64,000 bases of DNA from Candidatus Doudnabacteria bacterium (GTDB lineage Bacteria > Patescibacteriota > Doudnabacteria > UBA920). Position 1 is the stretch's first letter. Each line of letters begins with the position of its first letter. A model generated the notes under the pieces. The model was not told the DNA's origin. It searched no databases and saw nothing but the letters and a program-made list of their open reading frames with translations. The position numbers were made by a program, and so were the translations under genes. The stretch lies in NCBI GenBank assembly GCA_016788665.1, contig JAEUSF010000004.1, positions 29,407 to 93,406 of the forward strand, in the 5' to 3' direction. This document shows, piece after piece, positions 253 to 61,999 of this stretch.

Positions 253-2376
253 TTACATACCTTTTCTTACATTTATACCAGCTCTGCTTTCAATAATCTT
301 AGCCGCAACGTTCTTAGGAACTTCGGCGTAGTGGTCAAATTCCATTGTATAGGAAGCTTGTCCTTGAGTCATAGACCTTAAGGTTGTAGCATAACCGAAC
401 ATTTCGGAAAGCGGCACTTGCGCGTTTATAACTTTCAAATGCAAGCGATCGGTCATTTCGTTAATTTGAGCACGTTTGCTGTTTAAGTCACCAATTACAT
501 CGCCCATGTTTGCTTCCGGAGTTATAACTTCAACTTTCATAACAGGTTCCAAAATAATTGGGTCGGCTTTTTTAACTGCATCTTGCAAAGCTTTAGAACC
601 GGCAATTTTGAAAGCCATTTCCGAAGAGTCGACTTCGTGGTAGCTACCATCGTAAGCGGTAGCTTTAAAGTCTACAAGTGGGTAACCTGCTATAACACCG
701 TTAGCAGCAGACTCTTGAATACCTTTGTCTATAGGTTTTATAAATTCTTTTGGAATAACACCACCAACAATAGCATCTTCGAATTCATAACCTTTACCGC
801 GCTCGAGTGGCTCAACACGCAAGTAAACGTGTCCATACTGACCCTTACCACCAGTTTGACGAATATATTTGCTTTCAGCTTCAGCCATTTTCTTAAATGT
901 TTCTTTGTAAGCAACTTCAGGCTTACCTACATTGGCTTCTACTTTAAACTCGCGCTTCATACGATCTACAATAATTTCCAAGTGAAGTTCGCCCATACCA
1001 GCTATAATAGTTTGCTGGGTTTCTTCGTTTGTAGAAAGTTTAAACGTTGGATCTTCTTCGGCCAATTTTTGCAAAGCAATGCCCATTTTTTCTTGGTCAG
1101 CTTTGGTCTTTGGCTCAATTGCCATAGAAATAACCGGTTCTGCGAACTTTATGGATTCTAATTGAACTGGTTTTTCTACGTCGCAAAGAGTATCTCCGGT
1201 AAAAGTATTCTTAGGACCTACCAAAGCACAAATGTCTCCTGCAAAAACTTCTTTAACCTCATCACGTTGGTCAGCGCGCATACGCACTATACGACCTACG
1301 CGTTCTTTGTCGCCTGTGCGTGCATTCAATACATACGAACCTGCTTCTAACATACCTGCATACACGCGGAAGAAACATAAACGGCCTACAAAAGGATCGG
1401 TGGCGATTTTAAAAGCTAAGGCTGTAAATGGTTCGTTGTCATTTGGCTTTCGAATTATTTCAGCACCGGTTTTTAAGTCATGACCTTTGGTTTCGCCACG
1501 GTCAATTGGAGAAGGTAGAAAGTTAGTAACAGCGTCTAAAACAGTTTGCACTATAATACCACGACCGTCGCCACCCAAAACTGGAAAGAATGTAGCTGAC
1601 TGCACAGCTTTTCTTATAGCGGACAAAAATTCCTGCTCAGTAAGTTCTTGACCTGCCAAATATTTTTCCATTAAGGCATCGTCAGATTCCACAACTTTTT
1701 CAAGCAGTCTGTGCCTATACTCTTTAGCCTTTTCTAACATGTCGGCTGGCACCTCGCCAATGGTAAACTCCTTGTCCTTATAATCTTTATAGGTATAGGA
1801 CTTCATGTTTATTAAGTCAACAACACCGCAAATATCTTTTTCAAAACCAATTGGAAGCTGAATAGGAAAAGCGTTCGGGGAAAGGCGTTTGTGAATGGAG
1901 TCGAGTGATTTATAAAAATCTCCACCAGTTTGGTTGATTTTGTTTATAAAGCACATACGAGGCACGCCGTATTTGTCTGCCTGACGCCACACAGTTTCGG
2001 ACTGCGGCTCAACGCCCATCTTACCGTCAAAAACTGTAACTGCGCCGTCTAAGACACGTAAACTGCGCTCCACTTCTACAGTAAAGTCTACGTGACCCGG
2101 GGTGTCTATAATGTTGATCTTGTGCTTAACATCACCAGCTAACTTAATAAAACGAGGCTGCCAATAACATGTAACAGCGGCGGCGGTAATAGTAATTCCG
2201 CGTTCGCGTTCCTGTTCCATCCAGTCGGTAGTGGTTTCACCTTCGTGAACCGCACCTATCTTGTGGATCATTCCGGTATTGAACAAAATACCTTCAGTAA
2301 CAGTAGTCTTACCGGCGTCAATATGGGCAATAATACCTATATTTCTTGTAACCTCAATAGGATATTCTCGGGGCAT
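253..2376 (-). CDS. fusA: Elongation factor G
   Basis: 707 aa with [10 protein letters not shown]1 motif and full EF-G architecture; follows rpsL-rpsG. Confidence 0.95.
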
Positions 2377-2885: not shown

Positions 2886-3476
2886 TTAGCGTCTTCCGAA
2901 ACGTGCAAAATGGGCAAATGCCTTGTTAGCCTCTGCCATTCTATGAGTGTCTTCACGCTTCTTTATAGCTGATCCGACTTTGTTAAAACCGTCAACTATT
3001 TCTGCAGCAAGCTTCTGTGCCATAGGGGCGCCTTTTCTGGCTCTTGCAGCGGCTATAAGCCACTTCATACCAATACTGGTTCTTCTTGGCTCGGAAACTT
3101 CCATAGGTACCTGATAGTTCGCACCACCAATTCGGCGGGACTTAAGTTCCATAATTGGAGCAATATTTTTCAAAGCAATATCAAAAACTTGTCTGCCATC
3201 TAACTTGGTGACTTTTGGCTGTTTTAAGTCTTCTTTTGCACCCGACTTGTCTTCCGAAGTCTTGGCAGGAGAAACTTTAACCGGTGCCGGAGCAGCCGGA
3301 GTTAAAGAAGCAGCTTTCTCTCCCACTATTTCTAAAGCAGAATAAAAAATCTTGCGAGCAACATTTTTCTTTCCGCGTTCCATCATATAATTTATAAATT
3401 TGGAATACTTAACAGAACCGAATTTTGGATCCGGCTCAGGAGTATGTTTGTCGTATGATCTAGATTTTCTTGGCAT
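2886..3476 (-). CDS. rpsG: 30S ribosomal protein S7 carrying a roughly 35-aa Ala/Pro/Lys-rich insertion
   Basis: N-terminus MPRK..DPKFGS and C-terminus KREDTHRMAEANKAFAHF are canonical S7. It is 196 aa rather than about 156, with the low-complexity insert AASLTPAAPAPVKVSPAKTSEDKSGAKEDLKQPK. Confidence 0.9.
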   Translation of the reverse strand: MPRKSRSYDKHTPEPDPKFGSVKYSKFINYMMERGKKNVARKIFYSALEIVGEKAASLTPAAPAPVKVSPAKTSEDKSGAKEDLKQPKVTKLDGRQVFDIALKNIAPIMELKSRRIGGANYQVPMEVSEPRRTSIGMKWLIAAARARKGAPMAQKLAAEIVDGFNKVGSAIKKREDTHRMAEANKAFAHFARFGRR

Positions 3477-3568: not shown

Positions 3569-3982
3569 TTACTTTCTCTTAGCTCCGTATTTAGAGCGAC
3601 TACCTTTTCTCCCGTCGACTCCGAGAGTATCTAACTTACCGCGAACAATATGGTAACGGACACCAGGCAAATCTTTTACCCTGCCGCCGCGTATCATAAC
3701 CACACTGTGTTCCTGAAGGTTATGCCCTATTCCAGGAATATAGGCAATAACTTCCATACCGTTTGTCAGCTTAATTTTGGCAACTTTACGCAAAGCCGAG
3801 TTTGGCTTTTTTGGTGTGGTGGTATAGACCTTAAGACACACTCCGCGCATAAAAGGAGCACCTTTCCTTAAAGGGACTTCCCTATTCTTTAAAAGGTTCA
3901 ATCTATGCTGCAAAGCCGGAGACTTGGACTTGGCTCTGAGCGGCGATCTGCCTTTTCTAACTAACTGGTTGATTGTTGGCAT
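3569..3982 (-). CDS. rpsL: 30S ribosomal protein S12
   Basis: [12 protein letters not shown]..; 137 aa; canonical S12. Confidence 0.95.
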
Positions 3983-4065
3983 TTTGCTAGCTGGTAGCTA
4001 GTAGCTAGTAGGTTTGTAACCTGTATTTCCTACAAGCTACCACCTACTTCCTACAAGCTAAATAA
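3983..4065 (-). promoter_or_regulatory. Structured leader immediately upstream of the rpsL start (long imperfect inverted repeat)
   Basis: GCTAGCTGGTAGCTAGTAGCTAGTAGG ... CCTACAAGCTACCACCTACTTCCTACAAGC; the arms are near-complementary (GGTAGCT[A/T]GTAGG) and the tract abuts the ATG. Confidence 0.3.
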
Positions 4066-20291: not shown

Positions 20292-20329
20292 GCATTTACT
20301 CCAATACTAGATAGTATTGGAGTAAATGC
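20292..20329. repeat. 38-bp near-perfect palindrome (18-bp arms, 2-nt spacer) abutting the metG stop
   Basis: GCATTTACTCCAATACTA-ga-TAGTATTGGAGTAAATGC. Confidence 0.6.
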
Positions 20330-25930: not shown

Positions 25931-27010
25931 TTAAAGAATATTATACTTTATTTCTGTCGGCACTTGAATAAATTTATTAACCTTGTTATTTTCCAAATAA
26001 ACCAAATCCTCAATCCGCACACCGCCTTTTTTTGGCATATATACACCGGGTTCAATACTAAATACCATACCATTTTCCAACAAATCTTTTGAATTCGGGG
26101 AAAGGTTGGGAAGCTCATGAATCTCAAGTCCTGTTCCATGCCCTAAACTGTGAATAAAAAATTGGTCTAACTTTTTTTCGGCCAAAATTTCCACAGACTT
26201 TTTATACACTCGGTCACCGGTAACAATATGAGTCTTACCGCCACCCTGCGACATCCCCCTGTCAATATAACGAATAGACTCCGAGTAAGCTCTTTCAACC
26301 TGATTATAAGCCTCTTCCATTTTCCTATTGGCTTTTTTTATAAAGACAGTCCGAGTAAAATCACTGCAATAATTTTTATATTTAAAACCAAAATCCAGTA
26401 TTATAGTTTCCCCTGCTTTTAACTCTTTATTGTCGGGCACATGATGTGGAATTGCGGCGTTAACTCCGCTTGCAACAATGGGCGGGAAAGAAACACTTTC
26501 GGCTCCAAGTCTCAAACCTGCATTTTTAATAAAGTGCGCGAGTTTAATTTCAGTCATGCCTGGCTTCACAATTTCTCTTTTTACGAGAATAAAGACCTTT
26601 TCTACAATTTGCATAGACTTTTTTACAAGTCTTATCTCGCCTAGCTCTTTTACCTGTCTCATTTCGTCGGCCTTGCTCCTTGCTGGCAGAATTTTGCATT
26701 TGAAATTTGATATTTGAAATTTACTCTTCAAATACTCTCCTTCTCCATACGTGAAGTCATAGCCGATATAAAGCTCCTTACAACCCTTTAAGTATTGTGC
26801 AATATTTTTTAAGCGGTCAACTTTTTTCACCCAAGTAATTTTTTCAAGACCGCCTCCAAAAGCGACGATATTATTTTTTGTGACCAATAAAAAATCATCT
26901 CCCTGCAAAGCCAAAGGCCTGCCTGTCAAATAAAACAGGCTCTCTTTTTTCTTTATAAGAATAGGGTTTGAAAGGGATTTTTGAAGGTTTTTAAGACGAT
27001 TTGAATACAT
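25931..27010 (-). CDS. pepP: M24-family Xaa-Pro aminopeptidase/prolidase
   Basis: HSLGHGTGLEIHE, ...IEPGVY..., GGVRIEDLV metal-ligand motifs; 359 aa. Confidence 0.8.
   Translation of the reverse strand: MYSNRLKNLQKSLSNPILIKKKESLFYLTGRPLALQGDDFLLVTKNNIVAFGGGLEKITWVKKVDRLKNIAQYLKGCKELYIGYDFTYGEGEYLKSKFQISNFKCKILPARSKADEMRQVKELGEIRLVKKSMQIVEKVFILVKREIVKPGMTEIKLAHFIKNAGLRLGAESVSFPPIVASGVNAAIPHHVPDNKELKAGETIILDFGFKYKNYCSDFTRTVFIKKANRKMEEAYNQVERAYSESIRYIDRGMSQGGGKTHIVTGDRVYKKSVEILAEKKLDQFFIHSLGHGTGLEIHELPNLSPNSKDLLENGMVFSIEPGVYMPKKGGVRIEDLVYLENNKVNKFIQVPTEIKYNIL
26698..26722. repeat. Dispersed AT-rich repeat copy inside pepP (encodes KFQISNFK)
   Basis: atttgaaatttgatatttgaaattt. Confidence 0.5.
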
Positions 27011-27066
27011 ATTCTGTTTTTACTGAAAATCAGTGCTTAGCAGATCAATATTTATATACTACATTA

Positions 27067-27210
27067 CACCTCCCATCGCGTATGCGACGGACTCCTCCTA
27101 AGTGGAGGGGAATCCCTATGCATCCAGTAACCTCGGCAGTACTCTCCTCCTTATAGGAGGAGAGTACTCTACGTAAGGAGAGGGAGGTGGTTCAAACTTA
27201 AACAATATAC
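27067..27210. repeat. Composite hairpin-array module, left copy (A cgcgtatgcgacg; B CCTCCtaagtGGAGG; C palindrome AGTACTCTCCTCC-ttatagg-AGGAGAGTACT; D GGGAGGTGGT..CAAACTTA)
   Basis: B-C-D recur in the same order at 27591-27706, and A recurs inverted at 27663-27685. Confidence 0.7.
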
Positions 27211-27551
27211 TTTTTAATCTCTTCCACGACTCCATTTAAATTATTTAAAACTTCCACATTCTGAAAACGAATAATTTTTATATTTTGATTAAAAATATAT
27301 TCAGTTCTTGTTTTGTCGTACTCCTGTGCTTTTGAGTTATTATGGGTTTCTCCATCTAATTCTATTCCCAAACTGTTACCGTGACAATAAAAATCAATAA
27401 TATAAGCCCCGACTCCATACTGCCTGCGAAATTTCACCCCCAACTTGCTATTCTTTAGCTGATTCCATAATAGTATTTCTGGCAAACCTAAATTATTCCG
27501 AAGTTCTTTCCTTCTTCGTTTATATTTCGGATTGTTGAAAATGTAATCCAT
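27198..27551 (-). CDS. DUF559 (Vsr/restriction-endonuclease-like fold) domain protein
   Basis: LLWNQLKN..LGVKFRRQY.VGAYIIDFYC....LGIELDGETH matches the DUF559 signature; 117 aa, flanked by repeat modules. Confidence 0.75.
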   Translation of the reverse strand: MDYIFNNPKYKRRRKELRNNLGLPEILLWNQLKNSKLGVKFRRQYGVGAYIIDFYCHGNSLGIELDGETHNNSKAQEYDKTRTEYIFNQNIKIIRFQNVEVLNNLNGVVEEIKKYIV

Positions 27552-27564
27552 AAATATATTATTA

Positions 27565-27706
27565 CCGCCCCACGATGCTGTTGCATCGCACCCCTCCTAA
27601 AAGGAGGGGAATACTACGGTCGTCCCACCAAAGGTGGGACTCTCCTCCTTATAGGAGGAGTACGTCGCATACGCGACGGGAGGTGGTATACAAACTTACA
27701 TCAACT
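27565..27706. repeat. Composite hairpin-array module, right copy (four tandem G/C hairpins: CGATGC-tgtt-GCATCG; CCCCTCC-taaaa-GGAGGGG; GTCCCACC-aaa-GGTGGGAC; CTCCTCC-ttatagg-AGGAGG; then CGTCGC-atac-GCGACG and GGGAGGTGGT..CAAACTTA)
   Basis: Direct repeat of the 27091-27210 module; it forms the 3' UTR of glyQS. Confidence 0.7.
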
Positions 27707-29087
27707 GATTCATAATATACCCCCTTACCTCTTCTATTTTTATTCTTTCCTGTTGTTTGGTGTCACGGTTTCTAATAGTCACCGCACCGTCTTCCAAACT
27801 ATCAAAATCCACTGTTATACAAAAAGGCGTACCAATTTCGTCTTGACTATAATAGCGCTTGCCTACATTTCCCCTGTCATCCCACGCCACCATAAAATCT
27901 TTTCTCAAATTTTCATAAATTTCTCTTGCTTTAGAAACCAATTCAGGCTTGTTTTTCAAAAGCGGAAAAACTGCAGCTTTGTAAGGCGCCAGTTTGTAGG
28001 GTAACTTTAAGGTAATATTTTCCGGATCACTGTCGTCATATGCCGAAGTAAGGACAGCTAAGAAAGTACGACTAACTCCCCATGTTGGTTCTATACAGTG
28101 TGGCAAAACTTTTTCGCCTGTTTGCGGGTCAGTATATTCCAAAGATTGTCCTGATTTTTCCTGATGATTCTTTAAGTCATAGTCAGTTCTATACGCCAAG
28201 CCATATAACTCTTTTTGGCCAAATGGAAATTTAAATTCAGTATCTATACTACGCTTACTATAGTGTGCCCTATCGGCTTCCGGTATTTCTATAAAAACCG
28301 CCTGGTCAAAAATTCCAATTTCCTTACACCACTCTTTTTGCTGGTCCAGCCAATATTCAAACCACTTTTCCCATTCTTCCGGTCTTACAAAGTATTCTAT
28401 CTCCATTTGCTCAAACTCCCGGGTTCTAAAAATAAAGTTACCAGGAGTAATTTCATTCCTAAAAGCCGGACCTATTTGGGCAATGCCAAAAGGCAGCTGC
28501 TTACGGCTGGTACCCAATATATTTTTAAAATTTACAAACATACCTTGTGCCGTTTCGGGCCTCAAATATACTTTAGAGTCTTCGTCATCCACTGGCCCCA
28601 AGTTTGTCTTAAACATCATATTAAACTTTTTCGGCTCGGTAAGCTCGTTACCTTTTGGAGACCTTAGGCCCATTTTTTTTAATGTCTCAACCATTTGTTC
28701 AAATGTCATACCTGCGACCTGGACTCCATTTTCTTCCAAAAAATGATCAAGCCTAAAACGTTCATGAGTTTCTTTGTCCTCAACCAGAGGATCATTAAAA
28801 GTCGCTACATGCCCCGAAGCCTGCCAAACTTTTGGGTTCATTATTAATGCAGCGTCCACACCCACAACGTCATCCCTTTGCTGAACAAACTTTTTCCACC
28901 ACAACTGTTTAATGTTGTTTTTTAGCTCTGTGCCCAAAGGCCCATAATCCCACGAATTAGCCAGCCCGCCGTATATTTCGCTGCCCGGAAAAACAAATCC
29001 TCTTCTTTTGCAAAGACTTACAATTTTATCCATTTTGTCAGACTTGTTTGTTGCAGATAGAATAGGGCCGTTTTCTAATGTTGTCAT
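27696..29087 (-). CDS. glyQS: Glycyl-tRNA synthetase (alpha2 homodimeric type)
   Basis: IVSLCKRRGFVFPGSEIYGGLANSWDYGPLG N-terminus and class II motifs FRNEITPGNFIFRTREFEQMEIEYF; 463 aa. Confidence 0.9.
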   Translation of the reverse strand: MTTLENGPILSATNKSDKMDKIVSLCKRRGFVFPGSEIYGGLANSWDYGPLGTELKNNIKQLWWKKFVQQRDDVVGVDAALIMNPKVWQASGHVATFNDPLVEDKETHERFRLDHFLEENGVQVAGMTFEQMVETLKKMGLRSPKGNELTEPKKFNMMFKTNLGPVDDEDSKVYLRPETAQGMFVNFKNILGTSRKQLPFGIAQIGPAFRNEITPGNFIFRTREFEQMEIEYFVRPEEWEKWFEYWLDQQKEWCKEIGIFDQAVFIEIPEADRAHYSKRSIDTEFKFPFGQKELYGLAYRTDYDLKNHQEKSGQSLEYTDPQTGEKVLPHCIEPTWGVSRTFLAVLTSAYDDSDPENITLKLPYKLAPYKAAVFPLLKNKPELVSKAREIYENLRKDFMVAWDDRGNVGKRYYSQDEIGTPFCITVDFDSLEDGAVTIRNRDTKQQERIKIEEVRGYIMNQLM

Positions 29088-29283: not shown

Positions 29284-30114
29284 ATGAAACTCAGCGTGTT
29301 AGGGTGCGGAGCTCCGGTGTCTCACTTGCCAAACGTAAACACTCAAAGCCCCTCTGCCTATATTTTGGAATGGGGCCATGGCGGAAAACTTCTGCTTGAA
29401 TGTAGCACAGGCATTCAGGACAGGCTTAAAAAGAAAGGATTCGATATAGCAGAAATTCAGCACATATTCCTGTCGCATATTCATACAGACCACGTAGGAG
29501 GATTCCCAAGTTTATACCAAGACCTCTGGCTCAATACATTATGGGAGAAATCGGACGAAAGACGGCTAAAGGCATCATCCACCCGGACCATTTACTGTTC
29601 CAGGCAAACATCCACTAACCTGCTAAAAATTTTACGGCTGCTTATGCCGGAAAGCAAAGGCAGGCTCTACCCCTACCCCGAACTCAACTTTGTGGACATT
29701 CAAAACAAAGCCCGCTTGGAATTGAATGGGGCCAAACTTACAACAGTACCAACCTTCCATGGATCCGGCATGGTTAGAAGCTTGGCTATTCGGGTAGAAA
29801 ACTACGAGGGCGTATTTGTATACTCGGGCGACACCGGAATATGCCAGGGCATTGAAGACATCTGTCGGGGTGCCGACCTGTTTTTATGCGAAGCCTGCGC
29901 AATAACCGACGCAGAAATGCGTGCCCGCGGCCACCTCACACCAAAACAAGCCGGTCTCCTAGCAAAAAATGGCGGGGTCAAAAAACTTGTCCTCACCCAT
30001 CTAGCCGCCCCCCGCCTGCATGATTTGGAGCCTGTAATCCAAGAGGCTCTCAGCTCCGGATTTGCAGGTAAAATCCAAATTGCCCAAGACGGAGACGTTA
30101 TTAACCTGCCCTAA
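29284..30114 (+). CDS. MBL-fold metallo-hydrolase (RNase Z/ElaC-like short form)
   Basis: HIHTDHVGG HxHxDH motif, AAGGAGG Shine-Dalgarno, terminator downstream; noticeably GC-richer than neighbours. Confidence 0.65.
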   Translation: MKLSVLGCGAPVSHLPNVNTQSPSAYILEWGHGGKLLLECSTGIQDRLKKKGFDIAEIQHIFLSHIHTDHVGGFPSLYQDLWLNTLWEKSDERRLKASSTRTIYCSRQTSTNLLKILRLLMPESKGRLYPYPELNFVDIQNKARLELNGAKLTTVPTFHGSGMVRSLAIRVENYEGVFVYSGDTGICQGIEDICRGADLFLCEACAITDAEMRARGHLTPKQAGLLAKNGGVKKLVLTHLAAPRLHDLEPVIQEALSSGFAGKIQIAQDGDVINLP

Positions 30115-57675: not shown

Positions 57676-58620
57676 CTATTTTTTTACCCCATGTCCGCCA
57701 AATTGCTTTCTTAAAAGCGCTACAATTTTGTTTGAAAACTTTTGCTGATTCTTTTCCTCTACCGACTCCTTCCTTACATTCACCGAGTCCTCTATAACCC
57801 TTGCGTCTATACCCAGCTCTTTAGCAGCCTCCACAGTCCATTCGCCCTCCCCGAGCATAGCAATTTGACCCTTGGTACCTTCTATATCTTCCTGCTCAAA
57901 AATATTTCGCGTTAAATCTATTAGCCAACTTCTTATAACCGTACCTTGTTGGTAAATTTTGGTAACTTGAAGCAGATCTAAATCCAATTTTGAAGCTTTC
58001 ATTATACCGTAGCCCTCAGCTATTGCTTCCATCATGCCATACTCAATACCGTTATGGACCATTTTAACAAAATGCCCCGCCCCGTTTTTCCCCACCAATC
58101 CAAAATTTTCACCCGCCGAAAGCGCCTTAAAAACCCCATCAACTTCCTTCCATTTTTCCTTTTCACCCCCCACCATAAGAGCAAAACCATTTTTTTCTCC
58201 CCACACGCCCCCGCTCGTGCCACAATCATAAAAAGCTATACCTTTTTGCTTAAGCTCTTTTGCGGTTTGTATAGAATCTTTATAAAAACTATTTCCCCCG
58301 TCTATAACAACATCGCCCTTTTTTAAAAGCCCGCCCAATAAACTCTTGTTAAAAATAAAGTCTTTTACCAACTCATGAGGCAGCATAATCCAAAAAACTC
58401 TTGGCCCTTCGCCCATATCCCCAACCAAATCGTCTATGCTGGAGTATGCCTTGCTTTTGACTTTCGACTTGTCATTTGTCCCTGAAAAAAAATCTCCAAT
58501 TTCTTTCCGTGGACCTTCGCTCCTGTTCCAGGCTAACACCTCAAAGCCGTTTTTACTAAGGCGCTTTGCTATTTGCATACCCATCTTACCCAAACCAAAC
58601 ACAGCAATTGTCTTTTTCAT
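57676..58620 (-). CDS. gnd: 6-phosphogluconate dehydrogenase-like NAD(P)-dependent dehydrogenase (short, YqeC/Gnd-like)
   Basis: N-terminal Rossmann IAVFGLGKMGMQIAKRL; 6PGDH C-terminal domain; 314 aa. Confidence 0.75.
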   Translation of the reverse strand: MKKTIAVFGLGKMGMQIAKRLSKNGFEVLAWNRSEGPRKEIGDFFSGTNDKSKVKSKAYSSIDDLVGDMGEGPRVFWIMLPHELVKDFIFNKSLLGGLLKKGDVVIDGGNSFYKDSIQTAKELKQKGIAFYDCGTSGGVWGEKNGFALMVGGEKEKWKEVDGVFKALSAGENFGLVGKNGAGHFVKMVHNGIEYGMMEAIAEGYGIMKASKLDLDLLQVTKIYQQGTVIRSWLIDLTRNIFEQEDIEGTKGQIAMLGEGEWTVEAAKELGIDARVIEDSVNVRKESVEEKNQQKFSNKIVALLRKQFGGHGVKK

Positions 58621-58908
58621 ACTTATTTTTAAAGGTTTATTAAGATAATATTAACTTTTAACTATTTACAAAACTCTCATTTTATGGTATTATATCATCC
58701 GATGCACAATCAAGACTATATTGAGCTTTTCACGGCGGGACAAATCCCGCCAGAGGCAGCCATCATGGCTGCAAAAAAAGATAGAGCGAATCAAAGACTC
58801 GGATCCCCCCGAAGGGGATACGAAAAGCTGCAGGAGGAAAACAACGAGCGCTGATTACTTCAATCAGCAGCAAACTTCTTTAGCCGTCTGCTTTACAAAG
58901 ACGGCTTT

Positions 58909-59466
58909 TTATTTTGGCTTCATTAAACTTACAAATTTCTTTTTAAATTTTTCTAATTTAGGGTTTATAATCACCATGCAATACGGATTATTTCTATTTC
59001 TTTCAAAATAGTTCTTATGATAGCCTTCCGCCTCATAAAACTTCTGAAAAGGTGTAATTTCTGTAACTATAGGCGAATTAAATACCTTGTCGTTCTCCAA
59101 TTCATTCACAAACTCTTCTGTTTCTTTTTTTTGCTCTTCGTTAGTATAAAACACAACACTCCTATATTGCTCACCAACGTCGTTCCCCTGTTTGTTTAAA
59201 GTGGTAGGATCATGCGTAGAAAAGAAAACCTCAAGCAAATCACGATAATTTATTTCTTCTGGGTCAAATTCCACTTTTATTGCCTCAGCGTGTCCCGTGT
59301 TACCTAACGACACCTGTTCATAGGTCGGGTCTTCCACCCTGCCTCCGCTATAACCTGGCATAACCGACTGTACACCCCTTAACCCTAAAAAAATAGCCTC
59401 CGTGCACCAAAAACATCCTCCCCCAAAAACCGCTGACTGCAATAAATTGTTTTTTTCTATATTCAT
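58909..59466 (-). CDS. msrA: Peptide-methionine (S)-S-oxide reductase
   Basis: GGGCFWCTEA active-site motif; 185 aa. Confidence 0.9.
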   Translation of the reverse strand: MNIEKNNLLQSAVFGGGCFWCTEAIFLGLRGVQSVMPGYSGGRVEDPTYEQVSLGNTGHAEAIKVEFDPEEINYRDLLEVFFSTHDPTTLNKQGNDVGEQYRSVVFYTNEEQKKETEEFVNELENDKVFNSPIVTEITPFQKFYEAEGYHKNYFERNRNNPYCMVIINPKLEKFKKKFVSLMKPK

Positions 59467-61718: not shown

Positions 61719-61734
61719 CCTTCTTTAAAAAAAA

Positions 61735-61762
61735 CCGCTCTCTAAAGAGAGCGGTTTTTTTT
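61735..61762. terminator. Rho-independent terminator CCGCTCTC-taaa-GAGAGCGG + T8 (A-run upstream; bidirectional)
   Basis: Perfect 8-bp stem flanked by A7 and T8. Confidence 0.65.
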
Positions 61763-61999
61763 ATACCACATTTTTTTTACAAGACCCAATGACCATGTTG
61801 AAATAAAGTAACCAAATACTGGAACTATCGCCTTTAATACAGCCAAAGACTCATTGATAACTAAAAGCCAACCAAAAGAAATAAAATAAGTTAAAGTAAC
61901 AATAAGCAGCCTTCTCGTCAGGCTTGTCTCCCAAGCCTTGTCCGCTTCCACTCTTGTATTCCGCTCCTTAATTTCTAATATTTCTTTTTCTAAATTCAT
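61742..61999 (-). CDS. Hypothetical 2-TM membrane protein (85 aa)
   Basis: Two hydrophobic helices; no motif. Confidence 0.3.
   Translation of the reverse strand: MNLEKEILEIKERNTRVEADKAWETSLTRRLLIVTLTYFISFGWLLVINESLAVLKAIVPVFGYFISTWSLGLVKKMWYKKNRSL

Follow-up and report, generated by a model that had tools for sequence, protein, structure and literature searches.

Why should a gene for a small nuclease sit between glyQS and a peptidase gene, with arrays of short G/C hairpins on both of its sides? The question is raised by a stretch of 64,000 nucleotides from Candidatus Doudnabacteria bacterium (contig JAEUSF010000004.1, positions 29,407 to 93,406; hereafter the window, with positions counted from its first letter). 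Three genes follow one another on its minus strand: glyQS (27696-29087), an open reading frame (ORF) of 117 aa (27198-27551) and an M24 peptidase gene, pepP (25931-27010). We consider it probable that the middle gene, which encodes a YcjD-type DUF559 nuclease, and the repeats around it persist together as nuclease and cognate repeat, much as REP-associated tyrosine transposases (RAYT) do with repetitive extragenic palindromic (REP) repeats, and that the locus is a long-resident cassette in which the gene is bracketed by inverted copies of its repeat. This reading draws on the anatomy of the repeats, on compensatory and mirror covariation within them, on an association of gene and repeat that crosses phyla, on the presence or absence of the cassette at conserved sites and on ORF-less copies of the repeat elsewhere. 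Four rival explanations, namely homing, cis-acting RNA elements, Vsr-type repair and insertion scars, are ranked lower.

A nuclease gene among hairpin arrays

The DUF559 assignment, which an earlier note had made from the letters of this stretch together with the position between pepP and glyQS, agrees with Pfam (PF04480, E = 1e-27); MTES_1575 is the only other family matched. The residues conserved in the DUF559 family (D53, E64, D66 and H70) are all present in the window protein. Its nearest solved structure is PDB 3HRL (E = 1.4e-27), a Neisseria 'endonuclease-like protein' that is uncharacterised; PDB 3R3P, a domain of the homing endonuclease I-Bth0305I, is matched weakly but significantly (E = 7e-4). 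PADLOC returned weak nuclease-domain matches only, so a defence-system role is unsupported.

27198..27551, minus strand: YcjD-type DUF559 (Vsr-fold PD-(D/E)xK) nuclease gene, 117 aa, recognised from PF04480, 3HRL, 3R3P and the conserved residues

An ordinary mismatch-repair enzyme would be the simplest function for such a protein. In that explanation a Vsr-like nuclease acts with a cytosine methyltransferase encoded elsewhere in the genome, and the repeats are hitch-hikers in a recombination-prone hot spot. There is a precedent in Caulobacter, where VsrA, a DUF559-domain protein, has a functional link to a solitary, genetically unlinked C5-methyltransferase (PMC12907096); moreover, the interval between glyQS and the M24 gene is variable among relatives, and TM loci, whose repeats are taken up below, are prone to rearrangement in E. 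coli (PMC4666352). However, the Pfam Vsr model is unmatched by the window protein, whose gene has glyQS and the M24 peptidase gene as neighbours, with no C5-methyltransferase linkage in the window. A crude motif/regex scan of window ORFs of at least 150 aa found no C5 or N6/N4 methyltransferase signature in the 64 kb, an unlinked methylase elsewhere being possible. Hitch-hiking also leaves unexplained a 49-fold enrichment across phyla and a fixed inverted layout, both given below, and we regard this explanation as unlikely.

The DNA on both sides of the gene is not ordinary intergenic DNA. A perfect-hairpin scan found a single dense array of short G/C hairpins in 64 kb, at 27060-27700, the remaining hairpins being isolated and terminator-like. 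The two flanks hold four occurrences of CCTCC-N3-8-GGAGG and the rest of the 64 kb one (0.11 expected); the 21-mer CTCTCCTCCTTATAGGAGGAG has exactly two occurrences, at 27142 and 27640, with 0 expected by chance, and the tract CAAACTTA adjoining GGGAGGTGGT is present after both stop codons, that of the DUF559 gene and that of glyQS. Folded on the gene strand, both intergenic regions give multi-branch structures with a long-range stem as closure (z = -8.4 and -5.0 against shuffles). The earlier note had pointed to the arrays, the 21-mer and the shared tract, and in this it was right; the folding of the RNA had been its proposal. Two further descriptions held in part. A direct repeat in the order B-C-D had been proposed, and the flanks do align directly (27060-27200 against 27560-27700: 69% identity, score 92); yet the inverted alignment is nearly as good (64% identity, score 76; shuffled controls -15 +/- 8.6), and pairs of inverted units closed by arms of the ACCACCTCC / GGAGGTGG type describe the flanks better. 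The palindrome CGTCGC-atac-GCGACG, said to stand at both ends, is found at 27663-27678, but its copy at 27075-27090 is imperfect. As a whole, the gene is bracketed by a 50-nt imperfect inverted repeat (27067-27116 against 27636-27685, 86% complementary).

The unit from which both flanks are built is about 45 nt long. It holds a polypyrimidine/polypurine hairpin (CCTCC...GGAGG), a small G/C hairpin, P, and a G/T arm that mirrors the purine strand of the main hairpin, a third element that goes beyond the earlier description and identifies the repeat class. The arm is a mirror (G opposite G, T/A opposite A) and has no complementarity to the hairpin; at 27654-27686, for example, GGAGGAG is mirrored by GAGGTGG with 0 mismatches. 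On the gene strand an RE unit reads ACCACCTCC, hairpin P and the CTCCTCC/GGAGGAG hairpin, and an LE unit, its inverse, reads the CCCCTCC/GGAGGGG hairpin, P and GG(G/A)G(G/C)(T/G)GG(T). The order on that strand is glyQS stop, RE1, the hairpin H3, LE1, the DUF559 gene from ATG to stop, RE2, a spacer, LE2 and the M24 peptidase gene. Each flank is thus a doublet of two inverted units whose outer arms pair through ACCACCTCC and GGAGGTGG, LE2 and RE2 forming the downstream doublet, which is closed by an 8-bp long-range stem. A mirror-aware unit finder confined triplex-type units to 27142-27686 in 64 kb and found none in 20 shuffles. The parts are as follows (loci compared with the window carry L numbers).

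27642..27687, plus strand: unit RE1, triplex-type, 8 nt beyond the glyQS stop codon, also in L001 and L002; Y-stem CTCCTCC 27642-27648, loop TTATA, R-stem GGAGGAG 27654-27660, hairpin P CGTCGC-ATAC-GCGACG 27663-27678, arm GGAGGTGGT 27679-27687, mirror of the R-stem with 0 mismatches
27622..27640, no strand assigned: central hairpin H3, GTCCCACC-AAA-GGTGGGAC, spacer of the upstream doublet
27564..27609, minus strand: unit LE1, triplex-type, ending 12 nt 5' of the DUF559 ATG; on the gene strand H1 CCCCTCC-TTTTA-GGAGGGG 27591-27609, P2 CGATGC-AACA-GCATCG 27573-27588 and arm GGGGCGGT 27564-27571, 1 mismatch to the mirror
27138..27191, plus strand: unit RE2, 6 nt beyond the DUF559 stop codon; long hairpin AGTACTCTCCTCCT-TAT-AGGAGGAGAGTACT 27138-27168, degenerate P region 27165-27181, arm GGGAGGTGGT 27182-27191
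27067..27110, minus strand: unit LE2; arm CACCTCCC on the plus strand 27067-27074, hairpin P' 27075-27090, H1' CTCCTCC-TAAGT-GGAGGGG 27092-27110 with one G.T / C.A mismatch
27193..27200, no strand assigned: 8-nt tract CAAACTTA (gene strand TAAGTTTG, includes the stop codon), common to 27691-27698 after glyQS

The direct alignment of the flanks and the presence of TAAGTTTG after both stop codons are what one would expect if the flanks were duplication scars of one insertion, the host terminator module having been doubled as the gene came in. The earlier note had entertained this reading, and we find it very hard to sustain. The shared 8-mer is missing in L001 and L002; a local conversion between RE1 and RE2 is its probable source, if it is not due to chance. 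The compact cassettes of relatives (L085, L086, L088, L090) are single inverted units with no duplicated host DNA, an empty site is repeat-free, the same units flank DUF559 genes in unrelated genomic contexts, and the inverted alignment given above points the same way. The idea of generic terminators fared no better: no terminator-like site was found on either strand in 27011-27197 or 27552-27695, and the hairpins lack T runs, which makes them no canonical terminators, and are linked to DUF559 across phyla. In Rfam, tRNAs alone reach gathering score in the window, with chance-level matches in the flank region, and ten related loci gave nothing relevant.

Kinship to BoxC, PIT and TM repeats

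The mirror G/T arm places the flank units in a known class of intrastrand-triplex repeats, whose architecture is able, on single-stranded DNA, to fold into an intrastrand purine-motif triplex. The class is the subject of Bergler 1992, Hoyne & Maher 2000 and Holder et al. 2015 (PMC4666352). Its repeats were called BoxC first and PIT elements and 'TM/TMECO' intrastrand purine-motif triplex repeats later; the envM (fabI) gene paper is given as the first description of BoxC in PMC4666352 (its reference 46). The published consensus is CCCTCNCCC-N3-6-GGGNGAGGG-N3-GGGNGAGGG. A survey counted 3610 copies over 262 proteobacterial genomes, and cyanobacteria have many more (PMC4666352); Salmonella is reported to lack TMECO. 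The motif is always intergenic, often in inverted pairs of two types, and tied to rearranged loci; triplex formation in vitro was shown only for the E. coli TMECO oligonucleotide, and neither a transposase nor an integrase nor any other mobility function was ever encountered near the repeats (PMC4666352).

Units of the window type share with these repeats a stem rich in C/T, a short loop, a purine stem that pairs with the first and a mirroring G/T block. In the window, the stems are CTCCTCC-TTATA-GGAGGAG (27642-27660), CCCCTCC-TAAAA-GGAGGGG (27591-27609) and 27138-27168, and the third block is GAGGTGG (27680-27686, 0 mismatches) or GGGGCGG (1 mismatch). Both kinds are intergenic, frequently occur as inverted doublets of two non-identical types and are spread over many phyla. 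Unlike the consensus, with its 3-nt loop, the window units carry an extra hairpin of 14-20 nt between purine stem and arm, a variant also present in many loci of the Candidate Phyla Radiation (CPR), to which Doudnabacteria belong, and of Nitrospirota and Betaproteobacteria. Their second loop, which contains hairpin P, is 19 nt long, against 3 nt in TMECO and 1-6 nt in ITxF; it measures 7-30 nt in 112 of 275 units near DUF559 genes. Stems here are 7-9 nt of the CTCCTCC or CCCCTCC type, and CCCTCNCCC in the consensus. The window units are limited to the flanks of one gene and bracket a nuclease gene, whereas no associated protein or mobility gene was found for the published repeats. Dispersed copies, absent within the 64-kb window, are seen in other genomes (L035, L083, metagenome matches). 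Because of the long second loop and the lack of visible dispersal in the window, we count the units as a variant member of the class.

How firmly the arm belongs to its hairpin can be judged from covariation. The two ends of one cassette differ (CTCCTCC/GAGGTGG against CCCCTCC/GGGGTGG), and each arm fits its own hairpin. Hairpins and arms change together: GGAGGGG pairs with GGGGTGG, GGAGGAG with GAGGTGG, GGAGAGG with GGAGTGG (L002), AGGGGAGGG with GGGTGGGGT in gammaproteobacteria and AGGGAAAGG with GGAAAGGGTGG in Ulvibacterium; GGAGGGG, GGAGGAG, GGGGAGGG and GGGGGAGG are named as variant types. An exact mirror arm stands beside its own hairpin in 37% of cases, compared with 1.8% for cross-locus flanks with different stems, and since about half of the cases view the wrong side of the palindrome, 37% is near the maximum. 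Hairpin P shows five to six pairs with double compensatory changes among 22 CPR units. This last result comes from a MAFFT/RNAalifold alignment of the 22 units in which the main hairpin was misregistered, so the covariation of P alone is used. The mirror relation has no Watson-Crick explanation and the ends are inverted, which speaks for recognition at the level of DNA.

This bears on the possibility that the arrays are cis-acting RNA elements of a glyQS-DUF559-pepP transcript, serving as 3' stabilisers, attenuators or Shine-Dalgarno-sequestering structures, with a nuclease that is unrelated to them. The three genes do lie on the same strand with no terminators between them, the gene-strand folds are very stable, the stems covary, and in compact cassettes the GGAGGTGG arm lies 3-8 nt before the ATG, where it resembles a Shine-Dalgarno sequence. 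The units are inverted at the two ends, however, so that RNA would show CCACC arms at one end and GGTGG arms at the other; this is the DNA-level logic of terminal inverted repeats. That arm and purine strand covary as mirrors is equally without a Watson-Crick explanation in RNA, and RNA does not form purine-motif triplexes (PMC4666352). On the transcript strand the LE2 hairpin contains a C.A mismatch, which is a G.T on the other strand, and PIT/BoxC elements are described, in PMC4666352 citing Maher et al., as having no promoter or terminator activity in E. coli. Finally, the same units stand far from any DUF559 gene and within coding regions. We give this explanation little chance.

Gene and repeat in other genomes

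The pairing of gene and repeat is not peculiar to the window. We drew on the best 80 GTDB loci encoding relatives of the window protein (42-58% identity), with 84 DUF559 loci in the counts, and used the mirror-aware finder for the statistics; a simple arm-plus-hairpin regex was too loose and served for layout only. A unit lies within 300 nt of the DUF559 gene in 72 of the 84 loci, from many phyla, and in 586 kb the units within 150 nt of the gene ends number 184 of 274. Intergenic location was controlled for by counting gaps between genes: a unit is present in 115 of the 159 that adjoin DUF559 (72%) and in 10 of the 198 others from these loci (5%), an odds ratio of 49 (p = 9e-44). DUF559 genes are flanked by the same units in Geobacter/Desulfuromonadales, Thiothrix, Marinomonas, Methylococcus, Betaproteobacteria, Bacteroidota, Acidobacteriota, Cyanobacteria, Planctomycetota, Nitrospirota, Saccharibacteria, Nomurabacteria and others. 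The earlier note's view of REP/BIME-like repeats tied to DUF559 was borne out by these counts (about 85% of loci, in many phyla), by the lack of T runs and by the absence of such units from the rest of the 64 kb; its question whether other copies flank DUF559 genes is answered by them as well.

The commonest layout has LE upstream and RE downstream with arms facing the ORF (35 of 83 genes), and is kept down to 32-38% protein identity in IMG/VR contigs, where a covarying variant, GGGGGAGG with GGAGGGG, is found. The opposite layout, with the gene inside a doublet, occurs in six genes; the order arm-hairpin-ORF-hairpin-arm is seen in L020, L022, L033 and L055. Seen from the repeat, the association is much looser. 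A repeat-first metagenome scan with the commonest unit gave 120 loci, and a DUF559 ORF stands within 300 nt in 4 of the 84 matches with enough flank; doublets that lack the ORF stand at 2728-2854 of L083, a contig of Doudnabacteria, and L035, a Thermodesulfovibrio contig, has them in three intergenic regions in a row. DUF559 is nearly always with repeats and most repeats are without the gene, an asymmetry like that of RAYT and REP repeats.

Two observations were made in the same material. In Pedobacter alluvionis (L041), units and a 5' leader sequence are repeated around two adjacent, tandem DUF559 genes (3001-3342 and 3652-3990), whose products each share about 47% identity with the window protein. 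Many 6-9 kb 'viral' contigs of IMG/VR (L213-L250) end about 350 nt past a repeat-flanked DUF559 gene, which suggests assembly breaks at repeats, or cassettes at element borders.

At the glyQS site itself, comparison with relatives shows the insertion to be old rather than recent. L001 and L002 have the window's gene order and retain the units RE1-H3-LE1-ORF-RE2 with compensatory changes: those in hairpin P of RE1 are found in both, and H3, also present in L001, is kept in L002 with altered stem bases (TCCCGC/GCGGGA). Identity to the window is 79-80% for the DUF559 protein, 91-93% for GlyRS and 73-75% for the M24 peptidase. For the DUF559 gene, synonymous divergence (dS) is saturated while nonsynonymous divergence (dN) is 0.13-0.14, which puts the protein under purifying selection and shows the units to be conserved well beyond neutral expectation. 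The dating follows from the same place in these relatives, from the 79-80% identity and from the saturated synonymous sites. LE2 is confined to the window, L001 and L002 having no such unit, which makes it a local gain of the window's lineage.

Farther out the site becomes patchy. In L086 (GlyRS 67.5%) glyQS is followed by a compact LE-ORF-RE cassette, and four closer relatives (L292-L295; GlyRS 84, 80, 79 and 75%) have neither DUF559 nor unit in the glyQS-M24 interval, where other small ORFs or a GGDEF gene take the cassette's place; across relatives, the interval holds a GGDEF gene, alr or small ORFs. In these loci, then, the cassette has a patchy distribution at glyQS, through repeated gain or repeated loss. 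The earlier note's proposal of an empty-site comparison was therefore answered in part: cassette-free relatives exist (L292-L295), but none was found among the relatives in which glyQS and pepP abut, the four having other ORFs between them.

A compact unit-ORF-unit cassette of about 0.45 kb is likewise present or absent within conserved gene strings of related CPR genomes. Between rpe and tkt it is found in L085 and L090, and L088 has a 42-nt gap with no repeat; between htrA and ruvX it is found in L085 and L088, and L090 has neither cassette nor repeat. L085 holds two copies at a distance of 5 kb. The rpe-tkt copies share 63-68% identity with the window protein, which puts them level with the glyQS-site copy of L086. 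Compared with insertion sequences (IS) and miniature inverted-repeat transposable elements (MITE), the cassette has inverted ends of about 45-50 nt, and its protein belongs to no known transposase family. Such presence and absence at conserved sites fits a selfish or once-mobile unit, as the earlier note had supposed; its picture of a gene captured by the repeat and ours of a partner of the repeat cannot be told apart.

A selfish gene of another kind is the natural competitor here. The DUF559 gene may be a free-standing, homing-type nuclease gene that targets BoxC/TM repeats already in place or inserts beside them, the repeats being a landing site and neither partner nor cargo. The significant, if weak, relation to the I-Bth0305I domain speaks for this, as do the loci in which the ORF lies inside a doublet (L020, L022, L033, L055), as expected from insertion into one, and the many repeats without the gene; several IS elements are described in PMC8450116 as targeting REPs. 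However, the empty rpe-tkt site of L088 and the cassette-free htrA-ruvX site of L090 are repeat-free, so that units come and go with the ORF, and in the window repeats exist only around the gene. Cassette ends that consistently differ, each matched to its own arm, would not be expected from random landing. Homing seems to us improbable, though it is the strongest of the four rivals.

Doudnabacteria-like housekeeping strings are peppered with small nuclease or selfish-type intergenic ORFs: GIY-YIG (L085 10875-11171, L090 10886-11128), Bro-N (L089 and L090), a PDDEXK_3 domain fused to RuvX (L090 1240-2061) and 23S_rRNA_IVP/bAvd (L088 8272-8631). The htrA-ruvX site carries DUF559 in one genome and a PDDEXK_3 domain in another.

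Nuclease and repeat as possible partners

Our preferred explanation, that nuclease and cognate repeat persist together, can be put as a mechanism. A protein of 117 aa is too small to read a long sequence, so probably the folded unit, hairpin plus arm, is what it recognises; it would nick at or near the repeat. Nicking would hold the gene and its repeat together, as RAYT and REP repeats are held, and would serve to maintain or multiply units; extra ones could be gained locally, as in the window's lineage. Formerly, the unit-ORF-unit cassette of about 0.45 kb, ORF-less units and doublets may have reached new intergenic sites, and even in-frame coding sites. Here binding, cleavage and any mobilisation chemistry are what we infer.

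Several known systems resemble the locus in part. Like REP/REPIN-RAYT (TnpA_REP) systems, it has a nuclease-type gene in single or low copy, flanked by inverted short palindromic repeats, whose inheritance has long been vertical; the repeat also occurs without an ORF, singly or as inverted doublets (here in other genomes, not in the window), and gene and repeat are associated asymmetrically. The locus is not a member of that family, because the protein families differ: RAYT is a Y1 HUH transposase, and the protein here is a PD-(D/E)xK nuclease of the Vsr fold. The repeat, too, differs from REP in having no GTAG or CGTC tag and in carrying a triplex-type mirror G/T arm beyond the simple hairpin, and no dispersed repeat population is seen in the 64-kb window. 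With the Vsr-fold (EDxHD) homing endonucleases of the I-Bth0305I type it shares a related catalytic fold (3R3P), a small, selfish-looking gene and presence or absence at conserved sites; unlike them, it lies outside any intron or intein, has no extra DNA-binding domain (117 aa in total) and, in contrast with classical homing endonuclease genes, is bounded by structured inverted repeats.

Rickettsia palindromic elements (RPE), which in Rickettsia also insert in frame into coding regions, and MITE-like palindromes are comparable in the in-frame, ORF-less units and doublets of the M24 and TGT genes of L293-L295. The sequence family is another one, however, no target-site duplication is seen, and the window has no coding-region copies. 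The in-frame units and doublets lie at L293 6325-6358, L294 6223-6265 and L295 5928-6017 in the M24 peptidase gene and at L294 2631-2676 and L295 2965-3055 in the TGT gene; in these relatives, which lack the glyQS-site cassette, they add 12-31 residues at loops where the window proteins are shorter.

Can the explanation be extended to BoxC itself? More tentatively, and short of an even chance in our estimate, YcjD-type DUF559 proteins may be the missing cognate proteins of BoxC/PIT/TM repeats, nicking the folded hairpin-plus-mirror-arm, and the two together a second, independent replicator of the REP-RAYT kind that reaches from E. coli to CPR. In K-12, ycjD encodes 117 aa and has fabI as neighbour. 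A degenerate unit overlaps the ycjD stop codon, and about 170 nt downstream there is a canonical copy of the BoxC/PIT/TM repeat. A partial duplicate of the ycjD 3' end, about 40 nt, stands between the two.

L084 (NC_000913.3 1349000-1353000) ~2330-2372 and 2195-2262, minus strand: partial duplicate downstream of ycjD and BoxC/TM copy, E. coli K-12

BoxC/TM places number 1-31 per E. coli genome (median 17), and ycjD is present in 3378 of 5426 complete genomes; eefRABCD takes its place in phylogroup B2 and in the majority of D, E and F (PMC12817139). Taking the presence of a ycjD-adjacent repeat copy as a proxy in a spread of 60 records, we counted 13-29 places in genomes with such a copy, 1-8 in B2-like genomes and about 12 in O157. 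These counts fit a dependence of the repeat population on ycjD and are suggestive, though confounded by phylogeny and phylogroup and obtained by way of a proxy.

A number of observations weigh against the partnership, in its narrower or wider form. The tie between DUF559 and the repeats, and all that is said of function, is association read from genomes, and we know of no PD-(D/E)xK nuclease that performs transposition by itself. The second loop of 19 nt exceeds the 1-6 nt of the intrastrand-triplex definition (PMC4666352), so that triplex folding is putative here, and the window repeats sit solely around the gene, with none dispersed in the manner of a REP population. No consistent target-site duplication was found at five cassette borders, empty and occupied sites being too diverged to align. 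Units are lacking at 10 of 83 DUF559 genes by the criteria used, and at the most distant homologues. Lastly, O157 keeps its roughly 12 copies though ST11, the O157:H7 lineage, is reported to be without ycjD (PMC12817139), and the E. coli correlation is phylogeny-confounded.

Both components are known; a link between the DUF559/YcjD family and BoxC/PIT/TM repeats was not found in the searchable literature. BoxC/PIT/TM repeats have been known since 1992, form a triplex in vitro and mark unstable loci in E. coli, and neither a function nor an origin nor a partner protein was known for them; DUF559/YcjD is a very widespread domain of unknown function. Pairing the two gives the orphan repeats a testable candidate partner and the domain a possible function, as judged from genomic association. 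If the partnership is real, it would be a second case in which a short structured repeat and a nuclease persist side by side in bacterial genomes, mechanistically unlike RAYT-REP, and the replicator would combine a PD-(D/E)xK nuclease with a triplex-forming DNA end in place of an HUH transposase and a simple hairpin. For annotation, the pairing accounts for the recurrent 'hairpin arrays' beside small endonuclease genes in CPR and other genomes.

Some other features of the window deserve mention. A 276-aa gene of the metallo-beta-lactamase fold (29284-30114, plus strand) adjoins glyQS in a conserved position, and its orthologues in L001 and L002 have precomputed Pfam matches to Anti-Pycsar_Apyc1 and Lactamase_B. 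A gap of about 290 nt between convergent/divergent ORFs (58620-58909) contains three successive short G/C hairpins (58734-58751, 58756-58772 and 58803-58819), none at Rfam gathering score, and may hold a small RNA or leader. Two unusually long perfect hairpins with stems of 16-17 bp are found at 20292-20329 and 61726-61763, the latter with A/T-run shoulders like those of a bidirectional terminator.

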